From Azolla caroliniana (lineage: Eukaryota > Plantae > Polypodiophyta), in contig JBHGNT010000002.1 of assembly GCA_043228905.1 (NCBI GenBank), positions 28,148,001-28,212,000 of the forward strand: a DNA stretch of 64,000 nucleotides, given 5' to 3'. Within the stretch, counting starts at the first letter, position 1. Every line of letters begins with the position of its first letter. The notes under the pieces were generated by a model. The model had not been told where the DNA came from and made no database searches. It saw only the letters and a program-made list of their open reading frames with translations. Both the position numbers and the translations under genes were made by a program. Positions 888-52,400 of this stretch are shown here, one piece after another.

Positions 888-8067
<7,180 letters not shown>

Positions 8068-12408: not shown

Positions 12409-14012
12409 AACATCATATGACTAGCTATTGTACACAGAAACCTTTGTATATTATCGAAACTATAGAGTTTACCTTATTATTTTATTCTTTTATGATCAAT
12501 CATCCTTTTGTGTTTTTTGTTTGGAATGTAGCGAATAGAGTAAGAAAATGTCAAGTTCTCATTTCATAACGCAATAATTTTACTTAATTCTTATGAGAGG
12601 AAATTTCAAGTTCTTGTATTCATAACAGAACAATTATCCTTAATTCTTTTCACTCAAGGGAAAAAAATAAACTCACTCTATGAATAGATTAAATGATGTT
12701 TATAATTGTGTGCATGTTTTTTTAGACTTTTAGAAGCTTGAAACTGTCATGTGTATGATCACACAAATCTTACAATGATTGTCATGTAGATGCTGATAAA
12801 GTTTAGTTAGTTGTGTTGGTTCGATAGGCAGTCATTGATGATCAAAATCTATTGTCATTAGCCATACAAAAAGAACAAGCTAAATTATTTGACTGTAATC
12901 TAGAACTCAATATAACAATTAAAAGACCTCTGAGCATTAAGAAACAGGGATATTCTTGGAAGTACAAGTGGCTTACAATTTTTATAGTTTCTACAAAGTT
13001 TTTTGTTGATCGTCAATTCTAAGCTTTTGGATTTTGTACTGGTTGGTTTTGAATCTACATCTTTTGTAAAGGTATTAATAGAGGTGTGTTGAAACCATCT
13101 TTGGTGTAGAAGAGGAACTGTTTCTCAAAGCAACAAGGTTGCAACTTCTTTATCTAATTTACTGAAAAGAAGATAATGAGCATATTTAAATACAAAAACA
13201 TTAAATCCCAAAGACAAATAATTTGATAAAAATAAGGTTGGTTATTTAAAACGTTTTGATCATCAACTTCTCATTTAATTATGCAATAATATAGTATGGA
13301 CTATTTGATCTTAGTTTTGCTTGCTCCCCTAAAGATCCTTTGTTCTTAAGTTGGTTCCTAGGTTGGTTTGGTTTCGTTAAGCCATTGTAGTTCTTGTCAC
13401 ATGCACGCATGTATGTTTACGTATGAATGAGGCGTTCAAGTAAGAAAGTATTTAAAGATAACATTTCTAATTGGAAGTGTAATAAGGGGAAACAATAGGG
13501 AATGAAAGTAGTCCTATTGATCATATTAACAACTAACAAAGAAATTAAGAAATAGATTGAGATTCTAAAGGGCAAAGCAATGCAAATAATTGGTGCAATC
13601 CGAACCATATTATACTTATTTTAAGGTTCCATATATGCCATTAATCAATTGAATTGAAATCATTCCTTTGGAACACACATTGAAATTGCCCACAAATTCA
13701 TTTTAGTTGATGTGCTGTATTTATAACAACGTTAAACTAGAGATATTTAACAAAAATGTAAATAAATATGCTCATTACTGTTGTCGGAAGTGAAGGAAAC
13801 AAACACATGTGAGTTGATCTTTGTTGGTTTGTTAATTGATCTTCCTGAAAAGAAGCAAATAACCTTTGTTTCTTTATAAGTTATTTCACCTCAAAACAAG
13901 GAGAGGCTTCGATTGTATCTACAATAGGCTAAACTTCAACCTTACTCTTTCATAAACATTAATTCATATTCTTCAACTAGCATTAAGTTTACTTATAAAT
14001 GACTTGTCATAT

Positions 14013-15429
14013 TGTGGTGTGCATGTGTTCCTTTGTGCCACCCTTTTAGCACACCCTTTTTTGGATGCATGTACCTAAGTCGACCCACCCTTTTTAGCTA
14101 AGCCAACACAAATGGGAAATTGGGCATGATGTAAGAAGCTAAGTAGGCTGGTTTTAATATCTTATGTGCATTTCACATATTGGTGGAGATGCAAGGTACC
14201 AGTCCCCCACGTCCAAGCATCCACATCTTCCCCCTCACTTTAGGTTGCCCACTAACTTCTTGTCCCACGAGTTTCCTCGATCCCCCTTTGACATGATAGC
14301 CCTCCTGTCCCCCACCTCAGCCAAGTCCAGGTGGCCCTCAGTCCACAAGAGCGATTGATCTCCATTTGCCTATAGCCCTCATGTCCCCCACCTCAACCAA
14401 GTCCAGGTGGCCCTCAATCCTTAGGAGCGATTGATCTCTATTCGCCTATAGCTCTCATGTCCCCCACCTTAGCCCAATCCAAGTGGCCCTCAGTCTACAA
14501 GAGCAATTGATCTCTATTCGTCTATAGCTCTCTTGTCCCCCATCTCAGCCAAGTCCAGGTGGCCCTCAGTCCTTAGGAGCGATTGATCTCTATTCGCCTA
14601 TAGCTCTCATGTCCCCCACCTTAGCCCAGTCCAAGTGGCCCTCAGTCTACAGGAGCGATTGATCTCTATTCGTCTATAACTCTCTTGTCCCCCACCTCAG
14701 CCAAGTCCAGGTGGCCCTAAGTCCACAGGAGCGATTGATCTTTATCCACCGATTGCTAGCTTGTTTTTCGTCACTAGCCCTGTCCAACTATCAAGGCCAG
14801 TAGTTCCGTGGGGATGTCCTCAACACTGTTGTAGCTCAACTCGGTGTCCAACAGATGTTTACATCCCCATACCATCCTCAGACAAATGACCTCACCGAAC
14901 ACCTCAACAAGATCGTCAAGAAGGAGATTGCCGCTTTCATCGATCCATGCCACAAAACCTGGGATAAATCTTGCCTTTCGTCACCCATTCCTACAATATA
15001 TTTGTATAGGCGTCAACATGGATCAACCCTTTTCGAGCACTCTATTGGCGTAACCCTTGCCTCCCACCAGAATCGTCCATTGATGTCTATTCGAAACCTG
15101 CCAACATGGATGATGCCACTTGGGAGCTCTATCTCCAACAAATGCTCCCCCTCCTTCAACAAGCCACTGCTCATGTTCCTGTTCGTGTTCCTGCTCCTTG
15201 GTGTCTTGTTTCTCTTAGGGGGGAAACATAATATGTGAAATGCACATAAGATATCAAAACTAGCCTACTTAGCTTCTTACTTCTTGCTCAATTTATAGTT
15301 GATACAAAGGTACCCATTTGGGTTGGCTTAGTTAAAAAGGGTGTGCTAAAAGGGTGGGCCGGCTTAGGTAAATGCATCCAAAAAAGGGTGTGCTAAAAGG
15401 GTGGCACAAAGGATCACATGCACACCACA
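14013..15429 (+). mobile_element. Internally deleted Ty3/gypsy-derived element with inverted LTRs (TIR-like), tRNA-Ala PBS, integrase remnant and PPT
   Basis: LTR 14013-14177 (TGTGG...TCACA); PBS TGGTGGAGATG 14181-14191; integrase remnant QGQ*F...TSPYHPQTNDLTEHLNK...TWD at about 14790-15000; PPT AGGGGGGAAA 15217-15226; reverse-complement LTR 15234-15429; ATAT on both flanks. Confidence 0.85.
14297..14745. repeat. 76-bp tandem repeat, about 6 copies, with 152-bp dimer structure
   Basis: Units start at 14297, 14373, 14449, 14525, 14601 and 14677. Confidence 0.9.
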
Positions 15430-16149
15430 ATATTTAACATATAAAGAACTAGAGAAAATAGTTTTATGTAGGGGAATAGTTTAAGATGTATGTGTTTGCT
15501 GTTGTTTATGTGTGTTAGAGGAGAGAAAGAGGGACAAAAGTAGACACAAAAGAAAATAATATTTGAGTTAGCTCTAGATTAAGATTTGTTACGATAACCT
15601 TAATGCTTATAACCAGCCCAAATTTTGATGTTCCATGCACACATGAACCACATTGAGAATGAAGATGTTGATCTCATAATATCTAAACAAAAAAGTAAAT
15701 AACATATACATTTACCACTGAGCTTGGAGGGAACAAGTTCTACCCGGATCAAGGGGGACCAGGAAAGTAAGCAAAGATAGTCCAAGCTCGTTGATGATAT
15801 GACTTAGATGAATAGGAAGGGACATGGTGACTTAACATGCTCCACCAAGTGTGTGAATGCACAAGTGATGGGAAAGTGTGCATTAAAGCTCGTCATACCT
15901 TGTCATATGTGTGTGGTCACCATCTTTGTTATATGTAAGGAGAGATACCATTGGCGTTCAACGCGCAAAATATAATGATAATATATCCTTTCTCATTTAC
16001 GAAAATGTGCTTGGAATCCTACATAAATCCCCCACATTTGACGTTTCATCTTTATTTTCATCATCATTTTTGGCTATGTATGTTGGCCTACCTTAACAAG
16101 GAATTGTTTCCATCTTTTATCTTCTAAAACTTGAAGGTTAACAAAGTTA

Positions 16150-35991: not shown

Positions 35992-36274
35992 CCAAGAGCA
36001 TACGCCAAGAGAACGTTGTCGTGAAGAAAACCGTCCCTTAGCGCAATCGGTGCATAGCGCGCGTGAACCGGCTCTTCACGCGTGCGCGCCCTTTAATGTA
36101 TATATTAGAGAATTAGGTACAAAGGTATATCCTAGGTAGTTAGATTCGGTAGGTAGGAAGTTAATGAGGGAAACAGCTCCCTTCTTGAAGCTATAAAAGA
36201 GAGGGAGACGCGGGGAGAAGAGCAGGGCATTATTTCTGAGGAGGACGAAGTGCTGTCGGACCGGAACTGAACGC

Positions 36275-36542
36275 TGTTACCCCGTACGAGCTGTACGGAG
36301 AGTCAAGTGTGATGAGCGAGGGTCGAATATTATCATGATGATGTTGTATATGTGTAGGGAACATAAATGTAATTGTGAGTCGATATGTATGTGAACACAT
36401 GCACACGTGTGTGCATGTGGAGGGATACGATGAGGTGTGAGTGAGTGTCCAATATGAATGCTCTAGGGGGGTTACACCCCTTTGTATCTACCCCCTCTTG
36501 TACTATTTAACCCCTTTATGGGGAATGAATGAGAAAGGAATC

Positions 36543-36585
<43 letters not shown>

Positions 36586-39066
36586 CATCTCTCTTCCTAT
36601 CTCTCTCCCTCAACGTTGAACCCCTTAGAATGGCTCCACCCCCCACCCCACAATGCTTCTCAACGATTCTCAACATCTTCATGCCAATCTCTCTTACCAT
36701 CATACTCTCCATTATCTTCGCTATTACGCCATGTCTATCTTTGTCATTGATAATCATCATCGTCCTTAACCCTAACCCTAAAACATACAACACCTTTTGG
36801 CGACCACTAAGGCGACCCCCCTTTGAAGATGAAGTCGAAGATGAATATGCGGCAAAGACATGGCGACAACGAAATGTGCGATAATGGTGACAATGATGTA
36901 CAAAGAATCTAATTGACGATGTGCAACAAATGGCAGTCACAATATGTGAGACAAAGTCGAGGAATGAGATGGTATGATGATGTGAAGGAAATGGTGATGT
37001 TGATGGGAAGTCATCGAGGAATGCAAAACAATGAAGTTGTGCAAGAGGAAGTTATGAAATGATATGCAACAATAATACGCGAGAAATGGTAGAAATGTGC
37101 GTGTAATAGCGATGATGATGAAATGATGACGTTGTGCGAGACTACAACAATGGCAATGACCGTGTGCAAGAGATGGGGAAAAGGTCAAAGAAACAGGAGT
37201 AAAATACAATGATTACGATGATTATGATGTTGTGTCATTAGGGTTTCGGTTTGCGTCTTCTCCATTTCGAATCTTATCGATGAAAGAGATTCTGAAGGAT
37301 GCAACATGATTAAGGAAGAAGACAGAACGAACTACCAAACTATAGAGACTATGGATTTCTGTTTGAATGGCATTCTCCCAATCATTCTATGTTCCCATCT
37401 TAGGAATTTCGAAGAGATGAATCTCTAGTGTTTTATGAGCAAACTGACACAAGCAAGCAAAATAGACTCAAGAGACACAACCGAAAAGAGCCGAAAAGAC
37501 ACAACCAAACCACGGCCAAGACGGTGATACGGAGATGGTGATAGAACAAGAGGCGATAGAGCACCTGTCGGAAAGCGACCTAAGAACGGTCCCAGTGGCT
37601 GAATGGCGTCAGAATGGAGGCGGCCGGACCTGATGACGCCAAACAACGACAGTGATGGAGATTGCCGGAAGCGGCCAGACAGCAGCCAAACAACAACCGG
37701 ATGACGACTGAAGAGTGGCCAAGTGACGGAGCTCAGCCAAAACAGACGGCCACGCGACTGCAGACCGGCCGGACAGGGCCGGCGACGACGAGAGGGGCTT
37801 CAAGAACGGTCATCACCAACCGACAGAAGCCAGAGAGCGGTCGGAATGGTCGAACAAGACGACAGTCGAACGTCATTCGGACGACGATTGAATAAAGTGG
37901 CCGGAGCAACCGACGTGCTGGCGGCTAGACAACCAATGGTAGTAAGGAATAGAGATAGCCAGATAGAGATGCCAGCCCAAAGAATGGCTGGACAGGGCCG
38001 CGAGAGACGGCAACGACGCCACACGATGGTAGAACAACAACAGAAAGTGGCGGCCGGACAGCCACATCCGAACATCGGAGGACCCTGACTGCGACGGCGA
38101 CAGAACCACAGCCAAAGACGGAAACAGAAACAAAAATAAAGACCGAGACGGAGATGAACAAAGAAGGCCATACAAACACACAGAGTGACAGCCACGAACA
38201 ATGGACATAGTAGTGGTGAATGAAGAAGAGAAAGAAGAAGATGATGAAGTCTGAGAAACAGAAAGAAGAGAGAGAAAGGCATAGACGGAAGAATAAGGAA
38301 GAACGGGAAGAAAGAATGAGGAAGAAGAAAGCAGGTGAGAAAGAAAGAAAGAAGTAGTAACAGAAATGAAAAAGAAGAGGGAAAGAAGAGAAGGAAAGAA
38401 GAAAAAGAAAGATGAGGGTATCAAACATAATTGTAAAAACTTGAGGGTATATAAGAATATTTTAAAAATCAAAGGGCACCTATGAAATTTTGAAATCTCA
38501 TCCACCTAAAGAAATGGACGTGATCGACCACGACATCTCACAAAATCAACAAAGCATAACATACATACACACAACATTTTTAAGGACCCGAAAGAGGATA
38601 CCAAAGTTCGTAAGACGACAGAATGAGAATGTTCATGTCGCGGAAAAGTCGCTGACCGATGGAGATGATCGAGTCAAGCGCTCCGATCGAGGGAGTCGAT
38701 CGTTGAAAGGACCGATGGAAGTTCCGGTCGAAGAGATATCATCATCAAGGCATGTGGGATCGACGTGCAAGGCACTTTCCCACGGGCGTGCGATATTGTG
38801 TTACCCCGTACGAGTTGTACGGAGAGTCAAGTGTGATGAGCGAGGGTCGAATATTATCATGATGATGTTGTATATGTGTAGGGAACATAAATGTAATTGT
38901 GAGTCGATATGTATGTGAACACATGCACACGTGTGTGCATGTGGAGGGATACGATGAGGTGTGAGTGAGTGTCCAATATGAATGCTCTAGGGGGGTTACA
39001 CCCCTTTGTATCTACCCCCTCTTGTACTATTTAACCCCTTTATGGGGAATGAATGAGAAAGGAATC

Positions 39067-39117
<51 letters not shown>

Positions 39118-39343
39118 CATCTCTCTTCCTATCTCTCTCCCTCAACGTTGAACCCCCTTGGGAGGGGGGTGGAGCCATTCTAGGCACCACCCCCCACCCC
39201 ACAATGCTTCTCAACGATTCTCAACATCTTCATGCCAATCTCTCTTACCATCATACTCTCCATTATCTTCGCTATTACGCCATGTCTATCTTTGTCATTG
39301 ATAATCATCATCGTCCTTAACCCTAACCCTAAAACGTATAACA
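36275..39343 (+). mobile_element. Non-autonomous LTR retrotransposon (LARD/large TRIM) nested in the Ty3 LTR
   Basis: LTRs 36275-36792 and 38799-39343 (TGTTA...AACA), 5-bp TSD AACGC, PBS TGGCGACCAC (tRNA-Arg-like), low-complexity non-coding interior. Confidence 0.92.
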
Positions 39344-39789
39344 AACGCTTCTCCTCTGTTCGTTCTCCATTGCTCTTCTCTGCAGGTTTTCGGGAGGCTC
39401 GCGCTGCTTCGAGGAACGCCCGTGTGCTTCCGGCAGCACCTCCATCCTATCCCCTTTCGTGCGCAGACGAGTAGGCATCGGCATATGTTCGTCGGCCTGT
39501 TCGGTTGTAACCACTCGCGTGCTCTATTGTTTATTTGTCATTCATTAATATACAAACATTCGTGTCTCTCTGTCTCTGTGTCCATTCGTGTCTTCTGCAT
39601 TGACAGGGCCGTGTCCCTGTGTTTCTTTGCTCATACGTAACCGAGCGTCTCTCTCTTTCTCTTTCCCCTTCTATCACCTGCTCTTCGGTTCAAGACCCCG
39701 GTGGTCCCGCCTCGTTTCTCCACGCACGCGCATAGTAATGCGACATCTTTGGTGAACCCGACGTGAACAAGGCGGGAGAGGAGCAGAAG

Positions 39790-42722
39790 ATGAGGGGGTC
39801 AGATCTTGCAGAGGCCATGGCTTCGGCCGTGCACCAGATAGTGAGCGCGCACGAGGGCGCCAGCGCCCTTGACAGGGCTATTGAGGCGATCATCGGTACG
39901 ATCGACCGGTTCAGTGGAAAGGATGCCACGAGTTATTTGGCGTCCTACCGGGCGGAGATGTTGATGAGGGATATTCCGGAAGAGAGGCGTCTTGCCGGAT
40001 TCCCTCGAGTGGCGATGCCGGGCATCCATGCAGAGGTGCTCGAGGTCCGGGCGGAGAGCCGGACCTGGGAGGAGTTCGAAGTACGGCTCCTGGAGAAATA
40101 CGGGCTGGATGACGCCCTTCGGCTTTCGAAGCGGGGCTTCATGGAGTGGGTGGAGTCCCCCAACAAAGGAAGAAATGCGTCGGTACTCCTCTGGGAGTTT
40201 GAAGAACGCTTTGCGCACCTTTCGGCGCTCGATCGGACCGTTCTGGACACAAGTCGTGTCCTACTGTTTGTCAAATCGGTTGACGCACGGGATCAGGGGC
40301 AAGTGGGCTCCTTACTGGAAACCGAAGACGGGCTGACAAACGGTGGGAGTGGGCTGATACAGGGGCGACCGGGGCGGGTCCTGTCGCAATAAGGAAGCTC
40401 GAACCGATACCACAGGCGCGAAGGGTGTTGGGAAACAGGTCCCTCCGGATGGGAAGGGAGAAGATCAGTGCCGATGAACAAACTCGGCCGAGGCCGAAAC
40501 CGTATGAGGTGGACCCGGCCACGGAGAGCCGGATGATGCAGACCCGGTGAAGACCGGATGAGGAGTACCTGGCTACGGAGAGCCGGATGATACAGACCCG
40601 GTGTGAACCGGATGAGGAGTACCCGGCTACGGAGAGCCGGATGGTGTAGGCCCGGTGTGAACCGGATGAGGAGTACCCGGCTACGGAGAGCCGGATGGTG
40701 CAGGCCCGGTGTGAACCGGATGAGGAGCACCCGGCTACGGAGAGCCGGATGACGCAGACCCGGTGCGAACCGGAGGAAGAGACATATTCGTAAATATGTT
40801 TCTAAGAGCCCATCGAGGCTACATTTGTAAATAGCCGAAAAGTCATATTAGTATAAATATGACTTAGGGCAAACTTTATGTGTAGTTGTTATTTTCTGTT
40901 TTGCACGAGATCAGTGTGCGTAACTGTACAGAGAGAGAGAGAGAGAAAGAGGTCGTTGCCTCTGTTGTAACCGCCGCCTGTGGCGAAGATTTGTGAGCAC
41001 GAGGTCGGTGCCTCAGTGAACTCACTGTTGTATATTCCTACGTAGTGACAGTTTGCAGCCTGTGGGCTGCCGTGGTTTTTCCCCTAGTTTGGGGTTTTCC
41101 ACGCAAACCTCCTGTGTATTCTCTTCTTCTTCTTGTCGTGTTTATTTCCCGTTTTCTATGTATGAAAAGAATCTCGGTTGTGGCCGAGCGTTGGACATAA
41201 GGAGCCTTGAGTTCTCGTCAAGTCGGTTGTGGCCGAGCGTCGCGCATAAGGAACTTAGGGTTCACGTCAAAGGGAAGAGACCCGGGAGTGGCTCAAAACC
41301 GGTTCGGCTTCGACCGGCGTGGTCAGAGGCTAGTCCGGGGGAATAGCTTTGGAGGAGTTGACACGGGAAGTAAAGGATCTCCAGATCGCCCAGGCTCGGA
41401 GGGAAGGCGGCGAACAGGCTCGTGACCGACGGCCTCCGGCAGGAAATAGGTGCATGTGGTGCGACGAGGTCGGCCACATCTGGAAAGATTGCGGGGAATT
41501 TGCGGAGGCTTTGAGAAGCCGGGTAGTGTACCTGTGGGAAGGTTGGGTGCACGCCAGCGATACCCGGAGGGCCCTGAACCGAAACGACGGGCGAGGAGGA
41601 ATGAAAAGGCTGATGGAAGAGGCGGCGGCCCGGCACGCGAAGAACGTCCACTACTCGGCATCATCCGGTATTCGGGTCGGAGGCAGCGAGGCCCGGAAGG
41701 AGAGCAAAGCCGGGTTCTGGCCGACAATGCTAGAAGGCCTCGCCGGTGCCCGACTAAGGAAAGACGAGGTGGACCGCACAGAGAAGCGGGTCCAGGAGGT
41801 AACCGGGTGGAGTGACCCGGTCGAAGAAAAGACGGGTTTCGTCGAAGCAGCTTGCCAGAACTACGAGGCTCTGGTTGAAGACAAACGGGTAGGTAAAACC
41901 GGAGGGGCCGGACCCTCACAGAGATACGAAACCCGATTCGGGCCGAAACAGAACGAGGCCGGTGAGACTAGTGCCCGGGATAACCACAAGAAGGGCGGAT
42001 ACCTGTTGGGCACGGAGATCGAAAGGACCACGGACCTACGAAAGGTCCTGGAAGAACGAATCCTCAACAACAAGGTGGAACTGTTGTTGCGGGAGATGCT
42101 CGGAATCGCCAAGAAGGAGTTCCACGACTCCATCGTAGACTTGGTGAAGAGGAAGAGGCTGTCGACGGAGACAGAACCGGAAAGGCCGGTGGAGGTGCGG
42201 ACGACGCACATAGAGGACATGGCGCTGGAAGACGAGTGGGCGGAGAGCCACTATTCGAGGCCACACTGGGTCCGAGCGACCACGGAAACCCCGGTGAAGA
42301 TCGGAGATGTTTAGGAACCGGTGGTGGCGCTGGTGGACCACGGTTCGGAAATAAACCTGATTTCCATGGACTTCTACAAGAAGGGGAAATGGCCGATCAA
42401 CACCAAGCACGGGTGGAAGATATGGGCGGCGACGCGCGCCACCGAGGAACTACACGGGGCCTGCCCAAACGTGCGAGTCAAGATCGGCGACGTCGAGATA
42501 GACTAGCACTTCTTTGTGCAGGAGATGTCCTCGCACCCGGTCATACTGGGAGAACCGTACATTACGGCAGCACGGATGGAGACTAAGGTGCTGGACAACG
42601 GGTCTGCTTACACGAGGGTCAAGAGTCAGGACGAGCGTCATTCGGTCCAGTTCCTGACGATGCGACCGAACCACGAGCGAAACCGCGAGTCCCTCGGTGG
42701 CGAGAACCGAGAGGATTTTTAG
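39790..42722 (+). pseudogene. Ty3 gag-protease, copy 1 (interrupted by a solo LTR and stops)
   Basis: Capsid-like RFSGKDATSYL...WEEFE; zinc knuckle CMWCDEVGHIWKDC; protease ALVDHGSEINL...VILGEPY. Confidence 0.85.
40426..41269 (+). mobile_element. Solo LTR (probably Copia-type) inserted in gag
   Basis: TG...CA ends and 5-bp TSD AAGGG; the uninterrupted site is visible in copy 2 near 43370. Contains the GTGGTTTTT...GGGTTTTCCACG motif and a 54-bp tandem repeat (about 5 copies, 40506-40775). Confidence 0.88.
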
Positions 42723-43183
42723 AGAGGGCTGTCAAGGAGTGGGGCCGCAACAGTCCGGACACTCCAGGAAAACCCCATAAATGTACGATAGAGACGAAAC
42801 CAAAGAAACCTTGTACCATAAGTAGGAAGTTTTGTTTCTCCGACAACGGAGGGTGTACGATAGTCGGCGTCGTTGGTCGAGAAAAGACAAGGGCGGATGA
42901 GCGACTTCGGGCGTGCGGAGTTCTCGGGCCCAGCGAGGAAATCAACGGAGCTGTAGAGGCGGTCTCCTTCGACGATACCTTGGGAATACTGCAAGAGGTG
43001 GTCGGAGAGGGCCTTAAAGAGGACCGGACGATACCGGTTTGTTTAGAAGAGATGTACGAAGTCATCGCGGACTTCAGTCGAGGGCTCGAGTCGGATCGGA
43101 CGGCCCGGTGTCGTGAAGAAAACCGTCCCTTAGCGCAATCGGTGCATAGCGCGCGTGAACCAGCTCTTCACGCGTGCGCGCCC

Positions 43184-44820
43184 TTGACGCACGGGACCGG
43201 GAGCAAGTGGGCTCCTTACTGGAAACCGAAGATGGGCTGACGACCGACTAGGCCGTGGTAAAAAGAGTCTGCGGCCGTTTTGACAAATGGTGGGAGTGGG
43301 CTGATACAGGGGCGACCGGGGCGGGTCCTGTCGCAGCAAGGAAGCTCGAACCGATACCGCAGGCGCGACGGGAAGAGACCCGAGAGTGGCTCGAAACCGG
43401 TTCGGCTTCGAACGGCGTGGTCAGAGGCCCGTCTGGGGGGACAGCTTTGGAGGAGCTGACACGGGCGGTAAAGGATCTCCAGATCGCCCAAGCTCGGAGG
43501 GAAGGCGGCGATCAGGCTCGTGACCGACGGCCTCCGGCAGGAAATAGGTGCATGTGGTGCGACGAGGTCGGCCACATCCGGAAAGACTGCGGGGACTTTA
43601 TGGAGGCTTTGAGAAACCGAGTAGTGTACCTGTGGGAAGGTTGGGTGCATGCCAGCGATACCCGGAGGGCCCTGAACCGAAACGACGGGCGAGGAGGAAT
43701 GAAAAGGCTGATGGAAGAGGCGGCGGCACGGCACGCAGAGACTGTCCACTACTCAGCGTCAGCCGGTATTCGGGTCGGAGGCAGCGAGGCCCGGAAGGAG
43801 AGCAAAGCCGGGTTCTGGCCGACGGTGCTGGAAGGTCTCGCCGGTGCCCGACTAAAGAGAGACGAGGCGGACCTCGCGGAGAAGTGGGTCCAGGAGGTAA
43901 CCGGGTGGAGTGACCCAGTCGAAGAAAAGACGGGTTTCGTCGAAGCAGCTTGCAAGAACTACAAGGCTCTGGTTGAAGACAAACGGGTAGGTAAAACCGG
44001 AGGGGCCGGACCCTCACAGAGATACGAAACCCGATTCGGGCCGAAACGGAACGAGGACGGTGAGTCCAGTGCCCGGGATAACCACAAGAAGGGCGGATAT
44101 CGTTTGGGCACGGAGATCGAAAGGACCACAGACCTACGAAAGGTCCTGGAAGAACGAATCCTCGACAGCAAGGTGGAACTGTCGTTGCGGGAGGTGCTCG
44201 GAATCGCCAAGAAGGAGTTCCACGACTCCATCGTAGACTTGGTGAAGAGGAAGAGGCTGTCGACGGAGGCAGAACCGGAAAGGCCTGTGGAGGTGCGGAC
44301 GACGCACATAGAGGACATGGCGCTGGAAGACGAGTGGGCGGAGAGCCACTACTCGAGGCCACACTAGGCCCGAGCGACCACGGAAACCCCGGTGAAGATC
44401 AGAGCTATTCAGGAACCGGTGGTGGCGCTGGTGGACCACAGTTCGGAAATAAACCTGATGTCCATGGACTTCTACAGGAAGGGGAAATGGCCGATCAACA
44501 CCAAGCACGGGTGGAAGATACAGGCGGCGACGCGCGCCACCGAGGAACTACACGGGGCCTGCCCAAACGTGCGAGTCAAGATCGGCGACGTCGAGATAGA
44601 TCAGAACTTCTTTGTGCAGGAGACGTCCTCGCACCCGGTAATACTGGGAGAACCGTACATTACGGCAGCGCGGATGGAGACCAAGGTGCTGGACAACGGG
44701 TCGGCTTACGTGAGGGTCAAGAGTCTGGACGAGCGTCATTCGGTCCAGTTCCTGACGGTGCGATCGAACCACGAGCGAAATCGCGAGTCCCTCGGTGGCG
44801 AGAACCGAGAGGATTTTTAG
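43184..44820 (+). pseudogene. Ty3 gag-protease, copy 2 (5'-truncated)
   Basis: Closely similar to copy 1: CMWCDEVGHIRKDC, ALVDHSSEINL; ends REDF*. Confidence 0.85.
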
Positions 44821-44866
44821 AGAGGGCTGTCAAGGCGGGGCTTCTCAAAGCCTCCGTAACCGGCTA

Positions 44867-45656
44867 CTCAAAGCCTCCGTAAAGTCCCCGCAGTCTTTCC
44901 GGATGTGGCCGACCTCGTCGCACCACATGCACCTATTTCCTACTGGAGGCCGTCGGTCACAAGCCTGATCGCCGCCTTCCCTCCGAGATTGGGCGATCTA
45001 GAGATCCTGTACCGCCCGTGTCAGCTCCTCCAAAGTTGTCCCCCCGGACGGGCCTCTGACCACGCCGGTCGAAGCCGAACTGGTTTCGAGCCACTCCCGG
45101 GTCTCTTCCCGTCGCACCTGCGGTATCGGTTCGAACTTCCTTGCTGCGACAAAACCCGTGCGTCAACCGATTTGACAAACAGTAGGACACGACTTGTGTC
45201 CAGAACGGTCCGATCGAGCGCCGAAAGGCTCACAAAGCGATCCTCAAACTCCCGGAGGAGTGCCGACGCATTTCTTCCTTTGTCGGGGGACTCCACCCAC
45301 TCCATGAAGCCCCGCTTCGAAAGTCGAAGCGCGTCATCCAGCCCGTATTTCTCCAGGAGCCGTCCTTCGAACTCCTCCCAGGTCCGGCTCTCCGCCCGGA
45401 CCTCGAGCACCTCCGCATGGATGCCCAACATCGCCACTCGAGGGAATCCGGCAAGACGCCTCTCTTCCGGAATATCCCTCATCAACATCTCCGCCCGGTA
45501 GGACTCCAAATAACTCGTGGCATCCTTTCCACTGAACCGGCCGATCATACCGACGATCGCCTCAATAGCCCTGTCAAGGGCGCCGGTGCCCTAGCGCGCG
45601 CTCACTATCCGGTCCACGGCCGAAGCCATGGCCTCTGCGAGATCCGACCCCCTCAT
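44867..45656 (-). pseudogene. Ty3 gag, copy 3 (inverted, internally deleted)
   Basis: ORF 45021-45548 matches the copy 1 gag; the segment ends just after the zinc knuckle. Confidence 0.85.
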
Positions 45657-46561
45657 CTTCTGCTCCTCTACCGCCTTGTTCACGTCGGGTTCACCAAATA
45701 TGTCGCGTTATTACGCGCGTGCGTGGAGAAACGAGGCGGGACCACCGGGGTCTTGAATCGAAGAGCATGTGATAGGAGGGGAAAGAGAAAGAGAGAGACG
45801 ACCGGTTACGTATGAGCAAAGAAACACAGGGACACGGCCCATCAACGCAGAAGACACGAATGGACACAGAGACAGAGAGACACGAATGGACACAGAGACA
45901 GAGAGACACGAATGTTTGTATATTAACAAGTGACACAAAAACAACAGAGCACGCGAGCGGTTACAACCGAACAGGCCGGCGAATAGATGTTGATGCCTGC
46001 TCGTCTGCGCACGAAAGCGGATAGGATGGAGGTGCTACCGGAAACACACGGGCGTTCCTCGAAGCAGCGCGAGCCTCCCGAAAACCTGCAGAGAAGAGCA
46101 ATAGAGAACAAACAGATGAGAAGCGTTCGTTTACGATCTGACAGCACTTCGTCCTCCTCAATGCGCAATCCCTTCTCCCTGCGTCTCCCTCTCCTTTATA
46201 GCGTCAAGAAGGGAGCCATCTCCCTCATTTACTTCCTACCTACCGAATCTAACTACCCAGGATATACCTATGTACCTAATTCCCTATTATATACGCGCGC
46301 GCTATGCACCGATTGCGCTAAGGGACAGTTTTCTTCACGACAACGTCTGATTATAAATCAAAATAGAATGTTATGACTCACTTAAATTAATGAATATTCG
46401 CAGCATTTAAATTTTATTACAGGTTTGAATGATAAAGATATGGCTATAATGTATATTGATTTAAGAATACCGCAAATACTAAAATTCCTCTTGAACTATT
46501 AATCTTGGAATTTCCATTGTATTATTGCATGGAACATGAATATTGGCAAATCTAATATTAA

Positions 46562-49432
46562 TGTGAAATGCAGATAAGAGATCAAAACCAGTCTACTTAG
46601 CTTCTTACTTCTTAATCAATTTATAGTTGATACAACGAAACCCATTTGGCTTGGCTTGGCTAAAAAGGGTGTGCTAAAATGGTGGGTCATTTTGGGCACA
46701 CGCATCCTAAAAAGGGTGTGCTAAAAGGGTGGATCAACTTGGGTACGTGCATCTAAAAAGGGTGAGCTAAAAGGGTGGCACAAAGGAACACATGCACACC
46801 ACATTTCCCCCCTGCGAGAAACAAGAGATTGAGGGGCATGAGTGACCATGTGTGGTTCTTGCCGGGAACTGGAACGGTCCTCGCTCAGAGTTGCAACACG
46901 AATACCAACGGGCGTGAGCAACCATGTTGTCCTCACCGAGAATTGGAACACGAACAGGTGAGTGACCATGTGGCTCTCACCGGGAACTGGAACATGAACA
47001 ACAACGGGCATGAGCGACCATGTCAGTCCTCACCGAAGACTGGAACAGAAACAGGAGTGAGCAACCATGCGGCCCTCACTGGGAACAGGAACACGAACGA
47101 GAGATAGGGGCCATGTGCGGCCCTCATCGAGAACTCGAACACGAATGGGCGTGAGCGACCATGCGGCCCTCACCAGGAACACGAACACAAACACGAAAGA
47201 AACTAAAAAATAGAGACAATGAAGCGATGTTGATGATGAAGCGGTGGATATCAGGAGGCCTAACTAGTGAACTAAGGCGGTGCTAATAGAAGAGATACTA
47301 CTACAAGAGACTAACAAGAGTGTCGGTGATGGTGGTGAGGGCGATGCTACCTACGAAGCGGAAGAGGCGGATGCTTGGATGTGGGGGACTGGTACCCCGT
47401 CATCTCCACCAATATGTGGAATGCACATAAGAGATCAAAACCAGTCTACTTAGCTTCTTAGTTCTTAATCAATTTATAGTTGATACAACGAAACCCATTT
47501 GGGTTGGCGTGGCTAAAAAGGGTGTGCTAAAAGGGTGGGTCATTTTGGGCACACGCATCCTAAAAAGGGTGTGCTAAAAGGGTGGGTCAACTTGGGTACG
47601 TGCATCCTAAAAAGGGTGAGCTAAAAGGGTGGCACAAAGGAACACATGCACACCACATTTCCCCCCTGCGAGAAACAAGAGATTGAGGGGCATGAGTGAC
47701 CATGTGTGGTCCTTGCCGGGAACTGGAACGGTCCTCGCTGAGAGTTGGAACACGAACACCAACGGGCGTGAGCAACCATGTTGTCCTCATCGAGAATTGG
47801 AACACGAACGAGTGAGTGACCACGTGGCCCTCACCGAGAACTGGAACATGAACAACAACGGGCATGAGCGACCATGTCGGTCCTCACTGGGATCTGGAAC
47901 ACGAACAATAGTTGGAGTGAGCAGCCATGTGCGGTCCTCACCGGAGACTGGAACACAAACGGGAGTGAGCGACCATGCGGCCCTCACTGGGAACAGGAAC
48001 ACAAACGGGAGTGAGCGGCCATGTGCGGCCCTCATCGAGAACTCAAACACGAACGGGCGTGAGCGACCATGCGGCCCTCACCAGGAACACGAACACGAAC
48101 ACGAAAGAAACTAAAAAATAGAGACAATGAAGCGATGTTGATGATGAAGCGGTGGTTATCAGGAGGCCTAACTAGTGAACTAAGGCGGTGCTAATAGAAG
48201 AGATACTACTACAAGAGACTAACAAGAGTGTCGGTGATGGTGGTGAGGGCGACGCTACCTACGAAGCGGAAGAGGCGGATGGTTGGATGTGGGGGACTGG
48301 TACCCCGTCATCTCCACCAATATGTGGAATGCACATAAGAGATCAAAACCAGTCTACTTAGCTTCTTACTTCTTAATCAATTTATAGTTGATACAACGAA
48401 ACCCATTTGGGTTGGCGTGGCTAAAAAGGGTGTGCTAAAAGGGTGGGTCATTTTGGGCACACGCGTCCTAAAAAGGGTGTGCTAAAAGGGTGGGTCAACT
48501 TGGGTACGTGCATCCTAAAAAGGGTGAGCTAAAAGGGTGGCACAAAGGAACACATGCACACCACATTTCCCCCCTGCGAGAAACAAGAGATTGAGGGGCA
48601 TGAGTGACCATGTGTGGTCCTTGCCGGGAACTGGAACGGTCCTCGCTGAGAGTTGGAACACGAACACCAACGGGCGTGAGCAACCATGTTGTCCTCATCG
48701 AGAATTGGAACACGAACGAGTGAGTGACCACGTGGCCCTCACCGAGAACTGGAACATGAACAACAACGGGCATGAGCGACCATGTCGGTCCTCACTGGGA
48801 TCTGGAACACGAACAATAGTTGGAGTGAGCGGCCATGTGCGGTCCTCACCGGAGACTGGAACACAAACAGGAGTGAGCGACCATGCGGCCCTCACTGGGA
48901 ACAGGAACACAAACGGGAGTGAGCGGCCATGTGCGGCCCTCATCGAGAACTCCAACACGAACGGTCGTGAGCGACCATGCGGCCCTTACCAGGAACACGA
49001 ACACGAACACGAACACGAAAGAAACTAAAAAATAGAGACAATGAAGCGATGTTGATGATGAAGCGGTGGATATCAGGAGGCCTAACTAGTGAACTAAGGC
49101 GGTGCTAATAGAAGAGATACTACTACAAGAGACTAACAAGAGTGTCGGTGATGGTGGTGAGGGCGATGCTACCTACGAAGCGGAAGAGGCGGATGCTTGG
49201 ATGTGGGGGACTGGTACCCCGTCATCTCCACCAATATGTGGAATGTACATAAGAGATCAAAACCAGTCTATTTTGCTTGTTACTTCTTAATCAATTTATA
49301 GTTGATACAACGGAACCCATTTGGGTTGGCTTGGCCAAAAAGGGTGTGCTAAAAGGGTGGGTCATTTTGGGCACACACATCCTAAAAAGGGTGTGCTAAA
49401 AGGGTGGCACAAAGGAACACATGCACACCACA
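46562..49432 (-). mobile_element. Tandem-array TRIM: 4 LTRs and 3 non-coding internal units (about 850-915 bp period), same family as 14013-15429
   Basis: LTRs 46562-46803, 47415-47657, 48323-48565, 49237-49432. On the minus strand each internal unit starts with PBS TGGTGGAGATG(A)CGGGGTA (tRNA-Ala) and ends with PPT GGGGGGAAA. Internal repeats of about 50 bp. Flanks TTAA and TTAT. Confidence 0.9.
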
Positions 49433-52400
49433 TTATTATAAATAATAAAACAAAACAAAAAGAAATATGGGAATTAGTGTTGGAGATTTTCTAGCATTGC
49501 TATAATAATAATAATAAAAGAAATTAGGACGTTTCTGTCACATGAATCTAACATCTACTATATATGTAAGAAAATATAGAAATTCAAGGGTGTCAAAAAT
49601 ATAGGGGCGAGACCATTGGTGCCTTGAACTATGGAAGATTATCGACGTGCCTAGATTTGTTGGAGCCAATGTATAAATTGTCATGTTCTAGTGCTATTGA
49701 TTGTTTCCCCTCTTCACCTCATTTGGCCACATGGCATCGTTGCCCCTAGTTTTAGGACTTTATTCAGTTGTCTGCAAACTCTGTGTGTGTGTACATGTAA
49801 ATGTGCATTCATGTTCTATGTGTGTGTATATGTATATGTATATGTATATTTGGGTTCTATGTAGGTATGTGAGTTTTGTGCTTAAGTGGTTTACATGTAT
49901 TAGAGGATAAGCATGATCGTGTAATGATGTGTTAATGTGTGTGATTTTGCTCATCTAGGATGTGTATATATATGTGCTTTACATGTATACTAATGTATGA
50001 ATAAGCATAACCGTGTAACGGTGTGATAATATTTTATTGGTGAATATATGTGAATGTGTATAATTTGTATGGACATGTATGTGTATGTTTGTAAGTTTCT
50101 AGTAACAAAATGGAGAACTTTAGGAATTACATGAATGTGGATAGGGGTATGTATATATGATTTGGTTTTTATGGTTTAATGTTGTGTTCTAGTCTACAAA
50201 ATTCAAACAACTCTAAAAAATCGCAAGTGACGTTTACCATCGCTTGCATAAGAATGTACAAGCATGCATGTGCATGTTTTTGCAATTGGATGAATATGTA
50301 CATGTGAATTTGTGTAAATGCGGATTTGTATGTATAATAAGTATGTATGTATAATAGTATGGATCTCAATTGTGTATATTTGTATGTCTCTAGAAACAAA
50401 ATTGAGAACTTTAGGAATCACGGTGTAGGGGTGTATATATGTGATTTAGTTTTTATGGTTTGACATTGTGTTTTATAGTCTAAAACCGGCACTAAAAATT
50501 TGCAGTTGATATTCAACGTCACCTTTTTAGTAAAAAGGGTTTGATGTTAATTCCCCCTATGTTGTGTAATGATGGGGATGGAGACGATGATAAAGATGAA
50601 ATTGTTGTTGTTATTGGAGATGATAATGACAACAATGTTGACCACGACGACGATGTTGATGACAACAGATGATGAACTCCATGATGACAATAGCGAACAA
50701 ATAATGATAGATGGTAATGATTATGATGGTGTCAATGAAGTAATGAAGCATGATGAAGACGATATCGGTGTTGGAGATGAGAAGGATGACGACGACAATG
50801 TTAACAACAGTGGACAATGTTATCAATGAGATGTTGATGAAGACGATTCCGTTGTCGAAAACAAGAATCACAATATTGATGATGATGTATTCCTCCCAAT
50901 TTTTAAATAAAATAAGAAGACTCTCCTAAATTCTAATTTTACCTTAGGCATTGTTTGAAGTTTTCCAAAATTTTATTTTGGGACTTTTTATATTAATCAA
51001 TTCAATTAATGCTCATTGATACCAAACATTTCTCCCTTTTTTTTGAAAACTTATGTTTACGTCTTCAATTGGTCTTTACTTTTAGACCGTATTCTCGACT
51101 CCATGTGAAACCAACTATACTTCACTATTTCTCCATTTGCCCATGCCATGACATTACATAGGTCTAGGAGCCTAAGAGTTCAACTATAAAAAGACATTCT
51201 TCAAACTTTATTATGAATCAAAGCTATCATATTTTTGGATCCATTTATTGGTTAACTTCAAGGTATAACATAAGGCCATATTCCGTGACGTGAGACATGG
51301 ATGGGTTTTTGTGTTCACCTCTTGTTCATTGCTCAAGAGTGATTGGTCTATTTAAGCCCCCTTTATTGATCATTTTAATTAATTACTTATCATTACTATA
51401 TGCTTGTGCTATTGGCCTTCCCACACATGGGGAAACCTTTACAAAAGCAGAGCCCCATGGACCAAACTTTTACCCCGCACATGCTCAAGGGATAGCATAG
51501 GTTCAATCCACCATATGCAAAATTGCATAATTGAAGTCACAAAAGTTATAGACTCCCAAACACAATCTTATCGAATATAATGAACAAAAGGTATCATCAT
51601 GGCTCTAAGTTCTAACTTGAGCAACATAATCATCATATTAGTACCTAATAATCAATAATGATTATATTCACATTGTCAATCAAAACTATTAGAAGTATGA
51701 AAACACTCAAAGAATTGTAAGTTCTACACAAGAATATTGTCCATTTTTTTATGTTACATCAATTTTTTTGAAATGGTTCTCTTTTTTTTGGTACATTTTG
51801 AAAGCCTAAACTATTGCATTTGCAAGCCACTATCTTTAAGCAAACTGGCATCAATAAACAAAACATGCTTGATAAATTTATATCAAGATCCATAAATTTT
51901 GCACTGTCAATCAATTTTTTTGTGTTAAATCAATTATGGAAATACTATTGTATATAAGGGTCATGTCCTACTAAGATTTTAAATCATGGAAAGAAGTAGG
52001 TTGGGTTGCACTTTCTATGGTGAATAAGAGTCTTGCAAGAAGAGACAAAAGCTGATAAATGACATGGTGTTAACAAACAAAAGAATGTTGTCAAAAACTT
52101 AATACAATCATCACATTAAAGGAACATAGGAATTCTTGTGTGTGCAATATCGTGCCAAACCTCAAATGCTAAAATGTTGTTAAATTGCAGCCATGTATAC
52201 AATTAAAATTGGACAAAATTGAAGAATGATTAAAGCATGTTGCAATTTCTACTTGGAAAATAAGAAGAAATTATATGGCTTACCGCAGTTTAAATTCTTA
52301 ACACTCAAATCTTTTGGTTTTAGTGGTTCTCATCAAAATCAAGAGTTTTGATAATCTTAAACATTTTTAACATAAAGCTACCACATGGCTCAAACAAAAA

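Follow-up and report, generated by a model that had tools for sequence, protein, structure and literature searches.

The window analysed here, a stretch of 64,000 nucleotides (nt) from the fern Azolla caroliniana (contig JBHGNT010000002.1, positions 28,148,001 to 28,212,000 of the forward strand), contains two partial copies of a Ty3/gypsy retroelement primed by tryptophan tRNA (tRNA-Trp), in both of which the frame encoding Gag and protease (open reading frame 1, ORF1) ends in GGATTTT followed by a stop codon. An initial annotation of the window had read this heptamer and a downstream pseudoknot as a candidate programmed -1 frameshift signal giving access to the pol frame, which encodes reverse transcriptase (RT), ribonuclease H (RNaseH, RH) and integrase (IN). 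Comparison with relatives of the element indicates that Gag-protease (Gag-PR) stops directly after G GAU UUU and that RT-RNaseH-integrase is very probably made by a -1 slip with a predicted pseudoknot whose second stem had to be corrected. The features that bear on this junction are the following.

41270-43108, + strand: copy 1, an interior fragment of the Ty3 element that runs from 3' gag through protease and junction to codon 132 of the pol frame and matches positions 1368-3206 of the full-length copy L034 at 95% identity
42315-42722, + strand: protease end of ORF1, terminating ...REDF-stop, with the active-site D-H-G at 42336-42344
42713-42719, + strand: putative slippery heptamer G GAU UUU of copy 1 (0-frame codons GAU UUU)
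42720-42725, + strand: 6-nt spacer containing the ORF1 stop (TAG, 42720-42722)
42726-42732 with 42750-42756, + strand: stem 1 of the predicted pseudoknot, its eighth pair broken in the window copy
42739-42778, + strand: conserved stem 2 of the predicted pseudoknot, GTGGGG (42739-42744) with CCCCAT (42773-42778), leaving a last loop of 16 nt
42736-42741 with 42760-42765, + strand: stem 2 of the initial annotation, private to the window copy and rejected
42713-43108, + strand: beginning of the pol (-1) frame, encoding ~130 amino acids (aa) of linker ahead of RT, with no recognisable fold
43109-43185, + strand: first 77 bases of a long terminal repeat (LTR), where a break cuts short the pol frame of copy 1
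43184-44840, + strand: copy 2, a gag-protease piece with the heptamer at 44811-44817, the stop at 44818-44820 and only the 5' arm of stem 1 (44824-44830)

GGATTTT followed by TAG in the gag-protease frame had been placed correctly at 42713-42722 and 44811-44820, and the -1 frame of copy 1 is, as described, free of stops from 42713 through 43108, its first stop lying at codon 175 from 42713 and thus past the break. This open run of ~130 codons was rejected as stand-alone evidence, since chance runs of comparable length exist: in this GC-rich element, the alternative frames of an intact ORF1 reach open runs of 122 and 245 codons. The window alone therefore makes a weak case, and the support comes from relatives.

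Within the 523-Mb host genome, a 27-mer spanning the junction is present 283 times (control, 0). Long copies measure ~7.04 kb with LTRs of ~650 bp, and among 20 loci examined, eight had both ends readable, seven of them with an identical 4-bp NCGN target-site duplication and the eighth with one mismatch. The primer-binding site matches the 3' end of tRNA-Trp genes from the same genome, which bears out the assignment of the element as Trp-primed. One intact copy, L031, has an unbroken ORF1 of 725 aa with a zinc-knuckle-like motif, a DUF4100 match (E 3.5e-7) and weak aspartyl-protease matches (E 0.03-0.1; Pfam). The pol frame carries Pfam RT, RNaseH and integrase, no Pfam match to a chromodomain or an additional RNase H was found in complete pol frames, where the linker matches nothing, and the nearest named proteins come from Physcomitrium. 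A tRNA-Trp primer and an NCGN duplication are the marks of the Phygy lineage, a short element without an extra domain whose ORF organisation is listed as "not determined" (Neumann et al. 2019, PMC6317226). At ~7.04 kb the window family differs from Phygy in lying below its range of 7,656-9,968 bp (7.66-9.97 kb), a size criterion that those authors rate as relatively insignificant, while a sister family introduced below (~7.9 kb) lies inside it and shows the NCGN duplication pattern too. By primer and duplication, we therefore regard the window family as Phygy-like, rather than as Phygy, because of its size under the range. The protease active site reads D-H-G, not D-T/S-G, in 113 of 120 homologues, and copy 2 of the window has D-H-S.

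A scan of metagenomes left 80 loci out of 169 confirmed ones; the end of ORF1 could be placed in 75 of them, a site resembling the heptamer in 70 and the N-terminus of RT in 62. Relative to ORF1, the RT N-terminus lies in the -1 frame in 59 of these 62 loci, in +1 in three and in the 0 frame in none; two of the three +1 loci constitute the sister clade, and the third, L149, has stops and frame changes. At least 950 open -1 codons follow the heptamer in 31 of the 80 loci, and RT-RNaseH-integrase of relatives occupies a single -1 frame, open from the heptamer over ~1,150 codons. The host genome agrees, with an RT-like xDD motif in -1 in 17 of 20 long copies and insertions in the remaining three, so that the expected location of RT in full-length members is borne out in both sets. 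A further copy considered as having pol in +1, L052, is explained by a ~340-bp deletion relative to its family. Upstream of the heptamer, the -1 frame is closed within 1-16 codons in 58 of 65 loci, and within 1-3 codons in 24, which confines the frame change to the vicinity of the heptamer. No relatives of the element were found among viral contigs.

The heptamer contains no CpG, and its conservation among 95%-identical copies is therefore weakly informative; for this reason we used distant families, 23 of which were selected by eye for being distinct, with 47-84% DNA identity in the region of the junction. Conservation of the site, which the initial annotation had named as a check, is evident at this distance: GGATTTT, GGATTTC or GGGTTTT, all of the X XXY YYZ type and in 0-frame phase, is present in 65 of the 75 metagenome loci with a located ORF1 end. 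The first G of the heptamer, which is the third base of the preceding codon, is G in 23/23 families across 10 amino acids for which the background frequency of a third-base G is 21-48% (Met aside), giving a nominal value of 1e-10 that is not a true probability, as the families are related. The variant G GGU UUU occurs in two families, and the U run is broken to UUUC in four loci. All three stop codons are used directly after the heptamer (TAA in 27 loci, TAG in 22, TGA in 11), and in five loci the stop lies five codons downstream, inside the loop. This late-stop group (L139, L143, L144, L145 and L147, together with proteins ending ...PL) keeps spacer and stems unchanged. Within the host genome, the heptamer is intact in 27/30 loci of the window's own family and in 16/30 and 24/30 loci of two other sets, the lower counts belonging to older, more mutated copies. 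A composite of heptamer, stop, spacer and both stem 1 arms has 1,797 matches in the genome (control, 0).

The same boundary is visible at the protein level. Among 120 ORF1 homologues, from sources that include Physcomitrium patens, the liverwort Riccia sorocarpa and the fern Adiantum nelumboides, 76 end in DF, GF or NF, 24 in DF or GF plus ~5 residues and two in QVF[DY]; 12 of the remainder are longer (mostly predicted gene models) and six are truncated or unassigned. More distant Gag-protease proteins of DUF4100 type (P0146, P0170, P0190, P0202, P0249, P0250 and P0252-P0258) also stop soon after the protease, in DF/NF/GF or in LKV/GKV/GKA; at the protein level, the latter endings would be compatible with U UUA AAA or G GGA AAA as the site.

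Structure downstream of the heptamer was tested on a gap-free alignment of 32 junctions (30 -1 rows and two sister-clade rows). The spacer between heptamer and stem 1 is 6 nt in all 30 -1 rows, inside the 5-9 nt expected of a canonical -1 signal, and 5 nt in the two families of the sister clade. The annotated stem 1, GGGCTGT (42726-42732) with ACAGTCC (42750-42756), is a conserved element, with 96.9% of cells paired across the 32 rows and six of eight pairs changed on both sides, as against 28-40% pairing in slid controls. The stem 2 proposed with it fared differently: the letters of GGAGTG (42736-42741) and CACTCC (42760-42765) are present, but this helix is perfect in 1/30 family copies, the window's own, and 38.5% paired in the 32 junctions, within the range of slid controls; copy 2 has the family's GGCG where copy 1 has GGAG. 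The conserved stem 2 pairs a G-rich stretch of the loop with a C-rich stretch 11-16 nt beyond stem 1, and in the register 42739-42744/42773-42778 it is perfect in 27/30 own-family copies, which replaces the 3-nt last loop originally described by one of 16 nt. The best helix between loop and downstream sequence scores 16.6, compared with 12.2 +/- 0.4 for shuffled and 14.3 for cross-family combinations, and 0/10,000 permutations reach the true value, a significance that relatedness inflates. Pairs such as GUGGGG/CCCCAC, GCGAGA/UCUCGC, GCAGGGA/UCCUUGC and AUGAGGGU/ACCCUCAU illustrate the substitutions in stem 2. In 16 rows picked for a common register, a choice that favours the result, pairing over the entire knot is 92.9%, and both partners have changed at 10 of 15 pairs. 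These alignments predict an H-type pseudoknot 6 nt from the heptamer, with both stems covarying, stem 2 only at its corrected position.

Between junction and RT lies a linker of 122-157 codons, counted from the site, in which the pol frame has no stop in 23 families, whereas the remaining two frames contain 478 in 5,756 codons. Particular G, E, T, S, Y and I residues are nearly invariant across the 23 families, and four conserved residues (F2, G46, E75 and T89) precede the usual first Met. Judged from this pattern of conservation, the linker is translated. Among 24 members, no Pfam family was found beyond single weak matches, and the linker has no Atlas match and no Protein Data Bank match; an AlphaFold model is alpha/beta with a predicted local distance difference test score (pLDDT) of 70, and structure comparison of it (Foldseek best E 0.36, VIA-align best Z 2.6) shows neither a new nor a known fold.

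A two-frame layout, a conserved heptamer, a fixed spacer, covarying stems and a translated linker are thus the kinds of support on which the proposed expression mechanism rests. Most ribosomes would likely stop after the heptamer and release abundant Gag-PR, and a minority would likely slip back by one base at G GAU UUU. The slip would be a tandem one, with the P-site Asp tRNA moving from GAU to GGA and the A-site Phe tRNA from UUU to UUU, while the pseudoknot 6 nt downstream blocks the mRNA entry channel; its product would be a minor Gag-PR-linker-RT-RH-IN protein, at a rate that by analogy may range from a few to ~20 percent. The proposal of the initial annotation, Gag-PR in bulk and RT-IN by a -1 shift, has passed every comparative test put forward for it, and we infer the slip itself. 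Protease would in this arrangement be made 1:1 with Gag, as in alpharetroviruses, whose equimolar protease has a lower specific activity (PMC3185560). It is speculation, by analogy, that the D-H-G protease is possibly damped like the alpharetrovirus enzyme.

Several observations weigh against this mechanism. Both window copies are dead and rearranged, given premature stops in the gag-protease frame at 42312-42314 and 42504-42506 in copy 1 and at 44365-44367 in copy 2, which moreover breaks at 44840 within the stem 1 loop and lacks the 3' arm of stem 1. The metagenome loci come in 76 of 80 cases from a single assembly series and are probably collapsed repeats. The register of the second stem varies (over 32 rows, pairing is 75.5% at one offset and 71.9% at +2), and in L139 and L143 (2/32 rows) the best helix differs from the expected one. 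Folded alone, stem 1 of the window gains little over shuffled sequences (z -1.2, compared with -1.7 to -6.2 in relatives), and Rfam gave no matching family, with one chance match at E 8.3. A Met ~110 codons into the linker is present in 19/23 families, and gene models of Physcomitrium (UniProt P0004, P0039, P0061, P0104 and others) join ORF1 to the pol linker at ...KDFGE. Finally, RNA reads from three runs of a related organism are few and mostly 85-95% alike, so that they cannot exclude a rare splice; depth in the junction bin is ~7, 4 and 13, with no joint or indel listed. For the window stretch itself, no RNA dataset is listed as containing such reads.

The joined Physcomitrium models would follow naturally if pol were translated from a spliced RNA that fuses ORF1 to the pol frame, as in Ogre elements, and a CAG|GT is indeed present at the sister-clade site. 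However, a donor-like G|GT[AG] lies within 50 nt of the junction in at most 2/23 families, the linker is stop-free from the heptamer onwards in 23/23, and ahead of the conserved linker block, the only in-frame acceptor common to both sister-clade families would give a 28-nt intron. The three RNA runs show no joints, at low depth, and splicing leaves the heptamer, the spacer and the covarying stems unexplained; we consider it very improbable and the joined models probably artefacts of prediction across the frameshift. The Met in the linker might in turn serve reinitiation after termination at the ORF1 stop, or an internal start, at an AUG of the pol frame, and the L082 family even has UGAUG at the stop. 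Yet that Met is replaced by L, F or V in four families, the first pol-frame Met ranges from codon 3 to codon 111, the close L082 sisters L083 and L084 have no AUG there, and F2, G46, E75 and T89 are conserved upstream of it in a stop-free frame, which makes a start at AUG more improbable still; conservation of a stop-free linker upstream of the Met speaks against an intron and reinitiation alike. Slippage of a polymerase would place the extra base in the RNA itself, either in transcription or in reverse transcription, so that some RNAs carry both proteins in frame: heptamer and stop together offer five consecutive U's, and the RT of human immunodeficiency virus slips at shift sites (PMC5737442). 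The run is short, however, it is broken to UUUC in the four loci noted above, no indel is listed at the site in the (shallow) RNA reads, and slippage would require neither an invariant first G nor a knot at a fixed distance, leaving this explanation hardly credible. A ribosomal -1 slip at the heptamer is the reading that we retain.

The sister clade departs from the -1 layout. Its two metagenome loci, L120 (2836-2900) and L123 (2498-2560), read CAG GUU UUU GAC/UAC UAG, are 79% identical at the junction, and have pol of 1,154 (L120) and 1,101 (L123) codons in the -2/+1 frame. The same predicted pseudoknot follows, with stem 1 starting 5 nt after G GUU UUU and all 10 stem 1 pairs kept between both families despite substitutions; relative to pol, the position of the knot is unchanged and one base is missing upstream. 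The host genome holds 61 exact copies of the sister junction, the layout is common to 30/30 fetched copies (L211-L240 and L265-L278 among the members), and identical terminal residues are seen in five full-length members that are listed for the first protein cluster; the layout is thus not an assembly artefact. Among 14 copies chosen for few stops, both frames are fully open in 10 and the LTRs are at least 99.3% identical in 12; family-wide, LTRs are ~1.1 kb and many are 99-100% identical. Open frames and near-identical LTRs indicate that the family moved recently with its present layout. In RT and ORF1 trees (L080 was left out of the former and three proteins without the motif out of the latter), the sister families form one clade (100/100) among the -1 families, adjoining families with CAG GAU UUY at 93/87 in the ORF1 tree. 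The root is unsure, the branches to the distant outgroup being very long, and it is by parsimony and by this sister group (93/87) that the sister clade is taken to be derived. RNA reads on the sister clade amount to 10 on 2.7 kb, none of them at the junction.

How this clade reaches pol is less certain, as the frame alone cannot separate a -2 from a +1 shift. We consider -2 moderately probable. A +1 shift, by forward movement of a P-site Phe tRNA on UUU or by a stop-dependent, antizyme-like event, gains from the poor P-site re-pairing in -2 (GUU on AGG), from the inhibition of -2 when the first base of U6A was changed to G in structure-stimulated tests (PMC3458567), and from the need of the arterivirus -2 site for a protein stimulator (PMC4937337). 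The placement of the knot speaks for the other direction: when the P and A sites hold GUU UUU, the distance to it is 5 nt, but when the P site holds UUU, it begins only 2 nt beyond the A site, and by the sequence geometry, stem 1 would have melted before the stop could occupy the A site. In the larger family, moreover, the Phe tRNA would have to sit on UUG after a +1 movement, and a -1 slip meets an immediate UGA, as in the arterivirus PRRSV (PMC4937337); conservation of all 10 stem 1 pairs across both families likewise counts against +1. On these grounds, we rate +1 as unlikely, though with an appreciable chance, and routes other than -2 or +1 as distinctly unlikely. Retaining -2 for the sister clade, the combined picture would be that of a lineage of elements in seed-free plants that uses a pseudoknot-driven -1 shift after the protease, in which one clade has switched, through a single lost base, to a pseudoknot-driven -2 shift at an arterivirus-like site, and to this picture as a whole we lean only slightly.

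Comparison with U6A spacer experiments (Lin et al. 2012) is apt in that -2 was optimal at spacers 1-2 nt shorter than those for -1, the sister spacer being 1 nt shorter, and is limited in that artificial U UUU UUA constructs were used in rabbit lysate, where a first-base G inhibited -2 (PMC3458567). The -2/-1 site for nsp2TF in the arterivirus PRRSV shares with the sister clade the G GUU UUU core and, in the larger family, the immediate stop in the -1 frame; it differs in reading GG GUU UUU, in having no RNA structure, and in relying on a C-rich motif bound by nsp1beta/PCBP (PMC4937337). In the sister clade, AG GUU UUU is followed after 5 nt by a predicted pseudoknot, and RT would be reached through the shift alone. 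Where the arterivirus type has the motif CCCANCUCC, 11 nt downstream, the sister clade has stem 1. The sister clade is therefore not a member of the arterivirus type, and the resemblance is in the site only.

From alpharetroviruses, the element of the window family differs in being a plant Ty3 element with no env seen, in its D-H-G protease and 130-aa linker, and in its heptamer, that of Rous sarcoma virus (RSV) being A AAU UUA. It would resemble them (RSV and myeloblastosis-associated virus) in having the protease in frame and equimolar with Gag (PMC3185560) and a -1 shift, accompanied by a pseudoknot, close to the end of gag, at ~5% in those viruses (PMC5009743). Mouse mammary tumour virus (MMTV) and human T-lymphotropic virus (HTLV) shift again after pro (PMC12789967); the initial annotation had remarked that retroelement shifts usually precede the protease, and together with the alpharetroviruses (PMC3185560) these cases mean that a post-protease shift is not foreign. 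The G_GA start is a documented X_XX variant of -1 heptamers (PMC5009743), and G GAU UUU shifted efficiently in tests of plant viruses in wheat germ extract (PMC4737148). The likeness to a plant-virus slippery site had been recognised from the start and is sound: the dianthovirus red clover necrotic mosaic virus (RCNMV) and the umbravirus PEMV-2 have G GAU UUU with a 0-frame stop directly after it or 3 nt later, and any stop codon serves there (PMC4737148, PMC3111606). These viruses employ a large bulged stem-loop, long-distance pairing and a 5-nt spacer, whereas the present family would use a compact local H-type knot at 6 nt. Among plant elements, Ogre and Retand (Tat) likewise have GAG-PROT in ORF1 and RT-RH-INT in ORF2, but there a spliced intron or a single in-frame stop separates the ORFs, not an overlapping -1 frame (PMC6317226).

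The mechanism of frameshifting is known; its position, the host group and the covarying signal appear undescribed. The 2019 plant table contains no lineage with GAG-PROT overlapping RT-RH-INT, its overlaps lying only before the protease (Tcn1, Selgy and some SIRE; PMC6317226), and a 2003 survey of gag/pol recoding, as relayed in a 2016 review, had only +1-frame cases from plants (PMC5009743). The words "frameshift" and "Phygy" do not occur in the excerpted text of a study of Physcomitrium transposable elements (PMC7466625). We found no prior published account of the signal in open papers, a coverage that leaves out subscription journals and bioRxiv supplements, and entries in Repbase, GyDB or REXdb could mention the two-frame layout. 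A covarying signal, specified in full and with ~1,800 occurrences in one genome, fills this gap, would give plant ribosomes an endogenous pseudoknot frameshift for study, and accounts for the split or falsely spliced gene predictions made for such elements (DUF4100 proteins ending in DF). The most surprising part is the switch from -1 to -2/+1. If true, the sister clade would be a natural case of an RNA-structure-driven -2 shift on which a retroelement RT depends, and the switch would put the mRNA-tension model of shift direction to a natural test; through the matched natural pair, -1 at 6 nt and -2/+1 at 5 nt, in which the knots are homologous, the spacer-tension hypothesis can be tested directly.

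Two further pieces of the same family flank the copies described above.

39344-40425, + strand: 3' part of an LTR (end at 39745), the tRNA-Trp primer-binding site (from 39750) and 5' gag
44857-46342, - strand: inverted piece with LTR, primer site and 5' gag

Taken as a whole, 36017-46342 is a patchwork of at least seven element pieces in both orientations, in which a 3-kb insert (36276-39343) divides an LTR and a 54-bp tandem array occupies ~40444-40781. Tandem repeats of ~0.9 kb at 46561-49437 and 15233-15434 of the window, with related copies near 14000-15400, are unrelated to the Ty3 element. Beyond the window, 3' halves resembling tRNA-Trp give 64 matches genome-wide, and four other loci were checked with ARAGORN; clusters of them lie at G000 C8:17.80-17.82 Mb, C16:4.99-5.11 Mb and C5:10.11 Mb, some in tandem with a spacing of ~0.9-1.2 kb.

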